Shown: one piece after another, positions 18,095 to 18,125 of the stretch
Layout: every line of letters starts with the position of its first letter
Numbering within the stretch: the stretch's first letter is position 1
DNA from: a virus
Strand: one strand, 5' to 3'
UHGV virus genome: UHGV-0149439
DNA: 29,037 nt
Notes under the pieces: model-generated
What the model was told of the DNA's origin: nothing
What the model saw: only the letters and a program-made list of their open reading frames with translations
Databases searched by the model: none
Program-made: the position numbers and the translations under genes

Positions 18095-18125
18095 CCGAGG
18101 GGGCGAGGACACGCGGAAAACGGCT
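18095..18125. other. Candidate cos site (cosN-like)
   Basis: GAGGGGGCGAGGACACGCGGAAAACGG resembles the lambda cos region GGGCGGCGACCTCGCGGGTTTTCG; lies about 110 bp upstream of the terminase small subunit. Confidence 0.4.

Follow-up and report, generated by a model that had tools for sequence, protein, structure and literature searches.

The segment from 18071 to about 18232 in virus genome UHGV-0149439 is, judging by its sequence, very probably a cos site, belonging to a lambdoid prophage whose packaging module is of the lambda type (the window denotes throughout the whole stretch of 29,037 nucleotides that was analysed, and positions are counted along it). It is an ordinary further example of a well-studied type of site and overturns nothing that is known. 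A sequence-only reading of this DNA had singled out the string GAGGGGGCGAGGACACGCGGAAAACGG as resembling the cosN region of lambda and as lying upstream of the small terminase gene. The string is present at 18097-18123, within the claimed interval of 18095-18125, and it is placed as described, 107 nt 5' of the ATG of the small terminase gene terS (18230), with a GpA-family large terminase gene, terL, next. The resemblance itself holds in part: the full site is in register with lambda, but the 27-mer is a weak match, with 13 of 27 identities to lambda ACGGGGCGGCGACCTCGCGGGTTTTCG in an ungapped comparison. Since this identity alone is unconvincing, the case rests on the surrounding context. There the lambda-like cos reading is supported, as cosQ, cosN with its CGCGG flank, an I2-like segment, cosB-like repeats and an IHF consensus are all in register.

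Subsites and the predicted cohesive end

The order of elements in the window is cosQ (GGGTCCT), a 22-nt spacer, cosN (CCGAG-GGGGCGAGGACA-CGCGG) and an I2-like A/T-tract box, followed by a box of CAT repeats, then by an IHF consensus, and finally by two further boxes, one inverted and the other direct, the latter at the terS ATG. For comparison we joined the actual ends of lambda, which read GGGTCCT, 23 nt, GGGCGGCGACCT and CGCGGGTTTTCGC, where the window has GGGTCCT, 22 nt, GGGGCGAGGACA and CGCGGAAAACGGC. The two sites share an identical cosQ, the order of subsites, the CGCGG right flank, an A/T-tract segment at the I2 position, and the succession of first repeat, IHF consensus, inverted repeat and direct repeat, and both lie between the lysis region and terS. 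They differ in the distance from cosN to the small terminase gene, which is 130 nt in the window (from the predicted nick at 18100 to the terS ATG) and 190 nt in lambda. The alignment with cos regions of GpA-terminase phages that had been suggested as a check gives a register that agrees with lambda, LLS, yong2, mEp460 and cdtI.

The cosQ element, at 18071-18077 on the plus strand, is the exact lambda heptamer, and GGGTCCT occupies the cosQ position in 32 of 56 related sites. Its start lies 29 nt from the predicted top-strand nick in the window, LLS and yong2, and not 30 nt as in lambda, where cosQ is a packaging-termination signal required for nicking of the bottom strand at the downstream cos (PMC4856287, PMC4669245). 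A second allele at this position, AGGTACT, usually occurring as AAAGGTACTCC, was seen in about 16 of the 56 sites (some 30%). Its carriers are L001 (phage Chris1), L016, L018, L020, L021, L024, L025, L032, L033, L036, L039, L055, L059, L062-L065 and L074, and it is found even where cosN and cosB equal those of the window, as in Citrobacter murliniae (L021) and Chris1. An earlier survey reported no apparent natural variation in cosQ (Feiss 2015, PMC4669245).

Upstream of cosQ, at 18048-18062, lies a degenerate palindrome, TGATAATAATTCCCA, with three mismatches to the Fur-box-like sequence TGATAATCATTATCA. The latter occurs without mismatch in lambda, about 22 nt before cosQ (NC_001416 48451-48465, L007). 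Allowing at most four mismatches and at most 40 nt upstream of cosQ, we found it in 29 of 56 related cos regions and in 7 of 520 control windows, and its offset in the related regions (loci L012-L078) is mostly 22. The palindrome is associated with cos at a locked position in lambda and in about half of the family. We know of no cos subsite of that kind, and no paper within reach mentions a Fur box together with cosQ.

The cosN element (18095-18116) consists of the arms CCGAG (18095-18099) and CGCGG (18112-18116), which flank a GC-rich 12-mer, GGGGCGAGGACA, at 18100-18111. On the basis of homology with yong2, LLS and Cr-LKS3, the 12-mer is the predicted 5' cohesive end on the plus strand, with the invariant CGCGG directly 3' of it. 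The closest isolated phage with a linear record breaking at the site is the Hafnia phage yong2 (MZ516527), whose record finishes with ...GAGGGGGCAGCGACA and begins with CGCGGGAAACGG (CGCGGG). It shares with the window a cosN of the same type, GAG-GGGGCAGCGACA-CGCGGG, a 74% identical terS and identical spacing of all subsites, and differs by three substitutions within the 12-mer and by having no perfect IHF consensus. In the annotation of phage LLS, bases 1-12, GGGCGGCGCGCT, form the 5' cohesive end and CGCGGG comes next; this end was deduced from a putative site in mEp213, and nanopore reads of LLS virion DNA failed to cross cos (PMC12315714). The LLS and mEp213 sites resemble that of the window in having a DUF1441 terS (65-67% identical), a cosQ-to-nick distance of 29 nt, a cos-to-terS distance of 129-130 nt, the I2-like box, the (CAT)4 box and the GATGTCGAA and GTTCAYCATCATGG boxes; they differ in the cohesive end and in its left flank, which is CCACG in place of CACCGAG.

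The third comparison is more distant. The Cylindrospermopsis phage Cr-LKS3 has 5' cohesive ends that are reported to be 9 nt long, GGGCTCGCG (PMC9303873), and its record begins with these 9 bases, continuing with CGCGGAAGTCGGCAGTTTTT (CGCGG). Like the window it has a DUF1441 terS (36% identity), a GpA terL and a right nick just before CGCGG, and the start of its cosQ-like GGGTCCC is 42 nt away from CGCGG, on the left, just as it is in lambda. Unlike the window it has a cyanobacterial host, the shorter overhang and, after I2, a GCCGCAGCATCAG box rather than (CAT)4. By analogy, these homologous sites, where records are broken or annotated, favour the earlier claim that the site would be an end of the packaged genome.

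Because the record break of yong2, the deduced end of LLS and the reported end of Cr-LKS3 all fall just before CGCGG, the predicted bottom-strand nick at 18111/18112, immediately 5' of this motif, is well supported. The top-strand nick is predicted by analogy at 18099/18100, with a left boundary that may vary by 2-3 nt. We favour the exact 12-mer GGGGCGAGGACA as the cohesive end, with distinctly less assurance than we give to the cos assignment, because the stagger of Cr-LKS3 is 9 nt and the left flank in the window is AG, not CG.

Several properties of the sequence bear on this boundary. Across 39 unique related sites there is dyad symmetry around the centre of the 12-mer, the pairs at -5, -4, -1 and +2 being complementary in 95, 95, 97 and 85%, respectively. 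The symmetry score of the window has its maximum at the same centre, with symmetric mirror pairs at -5, -4, -3, -1, +2 and +5; in the 16-bp core, 3 of 8 mirror pairs are symmetric in the window and 5 of 8 in lambda (manual count). The 12-mer shares 6 of 12 positions with the lambda end, the left half being GGGGCG in the window and GGGCGG in lambda. In lambda-like phages, bp 7-12 of cosN are free to drift, whereas its left half, its flanks and cosQ stay constant (PMC4669245); the family sites follow the same pattern, in that the centre and right of the 12-mer vary and the flanks are fixed. Prophages of Citrobacter pasteurii, C. youngae and C. murliniae carry exactly the 12-mer of the window. 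Among the matches listed for IMG/VR contigs that contain the pattern of the right flank, no full-length contig ends at the site.

It is a less likely, though serious, alternative that the cos site is real but the top strand is nicked elsewhere, so that a sequence other than the 12-mer at 18100-18111 forms the cohesive end. The candidates would be a 9-nt end, GCGAGGACA, like that of Cr-LKS3; an 11-nt end, GGGCGAGGACA, which keeps the GGGCG start of lambda; or a 14-nt end, AGGGGGCGAGGACA, with CG on both sides. The 9-nt overhang of Cr-LKS3 with the same right boundary indicates that the stagger is variable in this terS family. The left-flank CG is highly conserved in lambda-like cosN according to Feiss (PMC4669245), and the window has CG on the right flank only, with another CG dinucleotide at 18096-18097, 2 nt farther left than the AG; moreover, a shift of register by one base raises the identity to the lambda end from 6/12 to 8/12 (manual count). 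Against these points stand the dyad symmetry of the family, which is centred on the 12-mer, the 29 nt from cosQ to the nick, which equals that of LLS and yong2 in the 12-nt register, and the 12-nt ends of enterobacterial lambda-like phages with GpA terminases (PMC4669245). We retain the 12-mer as the predicted end.

The linear record of mEp460_4F5 (L004/L005, LR595868) begins 5 nt left of the predicted nick, and its cohesive end is 3 nt short, reading GGGCGGGAG-CGCGG where L052, L054 and cdtI have GGGCGGGAGCGT-CGCGG. Both departures probably arose during assembly, at the physical ends of the genome.

Packaging genes, relatives and statistical support

The product of terS (18230-18736, plus strand) belongs to the DUF1441 family (PF07278, E 6e-46) and has a weak HTH_30 match at residues 10-34. 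Its homologues are annotated as small terminases in yong2, LLS and the mEp phages. BLASTP detected no similarity between this TerS and lambda Nu1, and a search of PDB sequences with the TerS profile gave a single marginal match to an HTH regulator (2eby, E 0.036). The product of the adjacent terL (18740-20857, plus strand) combines an ATPase and an endonuclease (GpA_ATPase, E 1e-76; GpA_nuclease, E 9e-90) and places a GpA-family large terminase beside the site; across 624 aa it is only 24% identical to lambda gpA (E 1e-20). A small ORF without a family match (20854-21069) has the size and occupies the position of lambda gpW, and a lambda-family portal gene follows (21078-22592). The broad group of lambda-like cos sites surveyed by the Feiss laboratory, which is defined by 12-base 5' ends related to those of lambda together with cosQ, cosN and cosB and in which we place this site, already includes a phage with a DUF1441 TerS, mEp213 (PMC12315714).

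The wider setting is that of a prophage. The left part of the window encodes an integrase (1657-2832, minus strand), a CI-like repressor (4877-5569, minus strand), Cro-like and CII-like proteins, an O-like replication protein, two DNA methyltransferases, Ant, an HNH endonuclease and Q. A lysis region with two holins, an endolysin and an Rz-like spanin comes next, then two moron-like genes, and the cos site lies between these lysis and moron genes and the terS-terL(GpA)-portal series. To the right of the packaging genes are a fused protease-capsid gene, a decoration protein and a tail sheath. All recognisable modules consist of full-length ORFs, and the window stops within the tail genes.

Several features of this gene content are worth recording in their own right. 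The prophage is a mosaic that combines lambdoid early genes and lambda-type packaging with a fused prohead protease-major capsid gene (22387-24654) and a tail sheath gene (27288-28757), the latter meaning that the tail is predicted to be contractile. The fused protease-capsid arrangement has been described for Gifsy-2 and mEp213 (PMC12315714). The adjacent DNA methyltransferase-like genes lie in the early region, at 7670-8551, with an additional PAPS-reductase-like match, and at 8544-10478 (644 aa, three matched stretches). Of the two moron-like genes between the lysis cassette and cos (16740-17075 and 17205-17627), the first encodes a protein with a TonB C-terminal domain (E 2e-13) and the second a protein homologous to the vertebrate lysozyme inhibitor Ivy (E 1e-19), and a strong terminator is found at 17645-17664, 3' of the Ivy homologue. 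A lysozyme inhibitor carried by a prophage could affect the fitness of the host.

A protein search of sequenced phages found a related small terminase in 59 records, and 67 loci with a related terS came to light when one genome was scanned for each species. Megablast against phages gave Chris1 as the sole match, while distant and protein searches gave the wider set. As the nearest relatives, at 94-96% identity, reside in Citrobacter pasteurii, C. youngae and C. murliniae as prophages, the prophage probably comes from Citrobacter. Three other species of Citrobacter have prophages with an identical cosN and a near-identical cosB, and so does Chris1, an isolated phage. The same layout precedes terS in about 50 of the 67 genomic loci, where CGCGG and the downstream ATG are usually 117 or 118 nt apart. 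Two types of cosN can be distinguished. Type A, the majority, including mEp213 and LLS, reads CCACG-GGGCGG......-CGCGG, while type B reads CACCGAG-GGGGCG....ACA-CGCGG and includes the window, Hafnia phage yong2, Citrobacter phage Chris1 and prophages in Citrobacter, Enterobacter, Serratia and Pantoea; homology between the two types is continuous via intermediates. One contig of 11,983 nt (L086, IMGVR_UViG_2574179916_000005) contains three complete cosQ-cosN-flank sites, with CGCGG at 108, 8243 and 10779, each having a different cosB-like sequence, and a DUF1441-sized ORF (282-776) after the first site only. This contig could represent tandem cos-bearing satellites or a misassembly.

Many enterobacterial prophages are defective, and the site could be an intact-looking relic in a prophage that never packages from it. 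We regard this as improbable: apart from the fact that the window stops in the tail module, nothing specific speaks for decay, whereas all recognisable modules have full-length ORFs with no sign of decay in the window, all conserved columns of the cos profile are kept, and the same cosN is shared with the three Citrobacter prophages and Chris1.

In order to measure how far the site exceeds chance, we used a pattern and a position matrix. The pattern GGGTCCT-N34-CGCGG with at most one mismatch occurred at least once in 18 of 100 shuffles of the window. The matrix spans 70 nt and was derived from 45 unique homologous cos regions of other genomes; the window and its near-identical Citrobacter copies were left out of the training set against circularity. 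At 18067 (plus strand) the window reaches 65.9 bits, while the runner-up position on either strand scores -28.1 bits and the best score over 50 shuffled windows is -2.1 bits. Every conserved column of the family profile is kept in the window. A second lambda-like octamer, GGGCGGCG, at 17900-17907, equal to the first 8 bases of the lambda end, was rejected as a cos candidate: it has neither cosQ 30 nt upstream nor CGCGG, and scores below -31.5 bits, outside the top six matrix matches. It forms the 3' arm of a hairpin, GCCGCCC-gt-GGGCGGC (17891-17906); with TTTTC next on the minus strand, the hairpin at 17891-17907 may terminate minus-strand transcription of the moron region.

The segment that follows cosN, CGCGGAAAACGGCTGGTTTTTTGCATTTTATC (18112-18143, plus strand), contains an A-tract and T-tracts and is nearly invariant in the family. 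In a numbering where 18100 is bp 1, and taking as conserved those blocks kept in at least 90% of 39 relatives with the same spacing, bp 13-33 read CGCGGRAAAMGGCTRGTTTTT. The A/T tracts, AAAA...TTTTTT...TTTT at bp 18-40, are conserved in the family and are of the I2 type by sequence, and the pattern recurs in more than 120 viral contigs of IMG/VR among the matches listed. In lambda, I2 covers bp 18-50, carries poly-dA/dT tracts, is statically bent and is essential for initiation (PMC4856287). Thus, the segment at 18112-18143 is probably a static bend between cosN and cosB. A terminator-like hairpin that was called at 18113-18135 was rejected, since its fold is insignificant (dG -9.9 kcal/mol, z -1.35), with three G-C pairs and equally good folds in 18 of 200 shuffles.

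It is accordingly very improbable that the site is a chance GC-rich resemblance, or a terminator or attenuator before terS, as might be thought from the 13/27 match of the 27-mer to lambda and from the called hairpin. The matrix score of 65.9 bits exceeds the shuffle maximum of -2.1 and the hairpin fold is insignificant; late transcription, furthermore, must pass the site to reach the head genes, and a terminator has no need of a conserved cosQ and fixed spacing. Finally, a satellite (PICI-type island) whose cos hijacks the terminase of a helper phage is scarcely credible, as PICI cos sites (EcCICFT073-type) do have near-identical cosQ and cosN with the same lambda-like spacing but precede rpp and lack the phage-type R repeats (PMC9026076), whereas terS, terL, portal, capsid and tail genes, the full phage packaging and head module, follow here, and the repeat boxes are common to bona fide phages.

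Candidate cosB and the DUF1441 small terminases

From its sequence we infer that the stretch between cosN and terS is a lambda-like cosB, composed of three CAT-repeat boxes and a perfect IHF consensus. Box 1 (direct, the equivalent of R3), GGCATCATCATCAT, is (CAT)4 at 18144-18157 (bp 45-58, plus strand) and is invariant in the 39 relatives; the counterparts at this position are R3 of lambda (bp 50-65) and R3 of N15 (bp 48-60) (PMC9026076). Between boxes 1 and 2 lies the IHF consensus WATCAANNNNTTR (TATCAACAGGTTA on the minus strand) at 18163-18175 (bp 64-76), a perfect match on the minus strand and the equivalent of lambda I1. It is perfect across the Citrobacter subgroup of the window and in the mEp460_4F5 and cdtI sequences, and most relatives keep the core TTGAT, usually with one mismatch to the full consensus. 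Box 2 (inverted, the equivalent of R2), GATGTCGAA, at 18198-18206 (bp 99-107, minus strand), is invariant in the groups with 117- and 118-nt spacing. Box 3 (direct, the equivalent of R1), GTTCATCATCATG, at 18220-18232 (bp 121-133, plus strand), overlaps the terS start codon and is invariant as GTTCAYCATCATGGA. At the level of sequence, the stretch thus has the repeats, the first of them at bp 45-58 where lambda-like sites have it about 47 bp from the nick, and the IHF site of a cosB.

The orientation of the boxes is clearest at another locus, L018, where the middle box, ATGATGATGAT, is the exact inverse of the CAT box. Because of this inversion, we read the layout as direct, IHF, inverted, direct, like R3-I1-R2-R1 of lambda. 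The box sequence also covaries with the N-terminal HTH of TerS over at least six clades, a covariation that is seen at the level of clades. At bp 44-58, the box is (CAT)4 where the HTH reads ...HRQTVA..., CATCACCAC where it reads NIS/NVS...HRQT, GGCGGCGGC with HRDTVKK, GCAGCAGCA with both NRNMVAR and SRNTVSK, and CCACCACCA with DRGTVRR. The repeat units by clade are (CAT)n, CAT-CAC-CAC, (GGC)n, (GCA)n and (CCA)n. In the clades with CATCACCAC as box 1, box 2 changes to GGTGTCGA and box 3 to TTCAYCAC. The inverse box of L018 and the covariation with the HTH suggest that the boxes are putative binding sites of the small terminase.

Nu1-family small terminases go with R repeats related to CGTTTCC...; the window has neither, as its boxes are (CAT)n, unrelated to the lambda R sequence, and its TerS is of the DUF1441 family without similarity to Nu1. 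For these reasons the site, as far as can be judged from sequence, functions like lambda cosB yet stands outside the Nu1/R-sequence specificity family of lambda, 21 and N15. A broader proposal, to which we give a little less than an even chance, is that DUF1441 small terminases recognise an undescribed type of cosB built of trinucleotide repeats, whose unit switches with the recognition helix of the HTH, and that box 3 could couple packaging to the translation of terS. The trinucleotide cosB, the AGGTACT allele and the upstream palindrome are family-wide and not peculiar to the window. All three are undescribed in the literature within reach, a body outside which lies the Vahanian 2017 survey of lambda-like cosN.

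Two further observations concern terS and its neighborhood. No recognisable Shine-Dalgarno sequence precedes the terS ATG, which sits inside the invariant box GTTCAYCATCATGGA (18220-18235); that binding of the small terminase at box 3 regulates its own translation is speculation. In addition, a Scandinavium metagenome-assembled genome (MAG; L066) has the exact cosN of the window, GAGGGGGCGAGGACACGCGG, joined to a cdtI-type cosB (with a GCTGGCGGCAGC box) and a cdtI-type terS, and this hybrid indicates that cosN on the one hand and cosB with terS on the other are independently recombining modules.

Proposed packaging from the site and its meaning

The steps of packaging can be proposed from lambda (PMC4669245, PMC4856287, PMC9026076) and from homology with LLS, yong2 and Cr-LKS3. 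TerS dimers would bind the repeat boxes on concatemeric DNA via their N-terminal HTH, aided by a bend induced by IHF, and the bound TerS would anchor two GpA nuclease centres, arranged symmetrically, at cosN. Staggered nicks at 18099/18100 in the top strand and 18111/18112 in the bottom strand would then produce the 12-nt 5' overhang GGGGCGAGGACA, so that the virion genome would begin with 18100 as its base 1, and its sticky end would finish at 18111. The terminase would stay on the terS-proximal end and packaging would proceed rightwards from terS, stopping at the next cos, where cosQ would enable the nick in the bottom strand.

The probable physical ends (base 1 at 18100) and the rightward direction of packaging are useful for prophage annotation, and they can help to predict which neighbouring host DNA or morons, such as the Ivy and TonB_C genes left of cos, would be carried at the right end of virion DNA. 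The site may also be useful for building cosmids or transduction tools in Citrobacter. In the wider comparison, cosQ and the right flank of cosN are near letter-perfect despite a TerL that is only 24% identical and a different TerS family, and the putative boxes offer a testable map of recognition sites for DUF1441, an uncharacterised family of small terminases.
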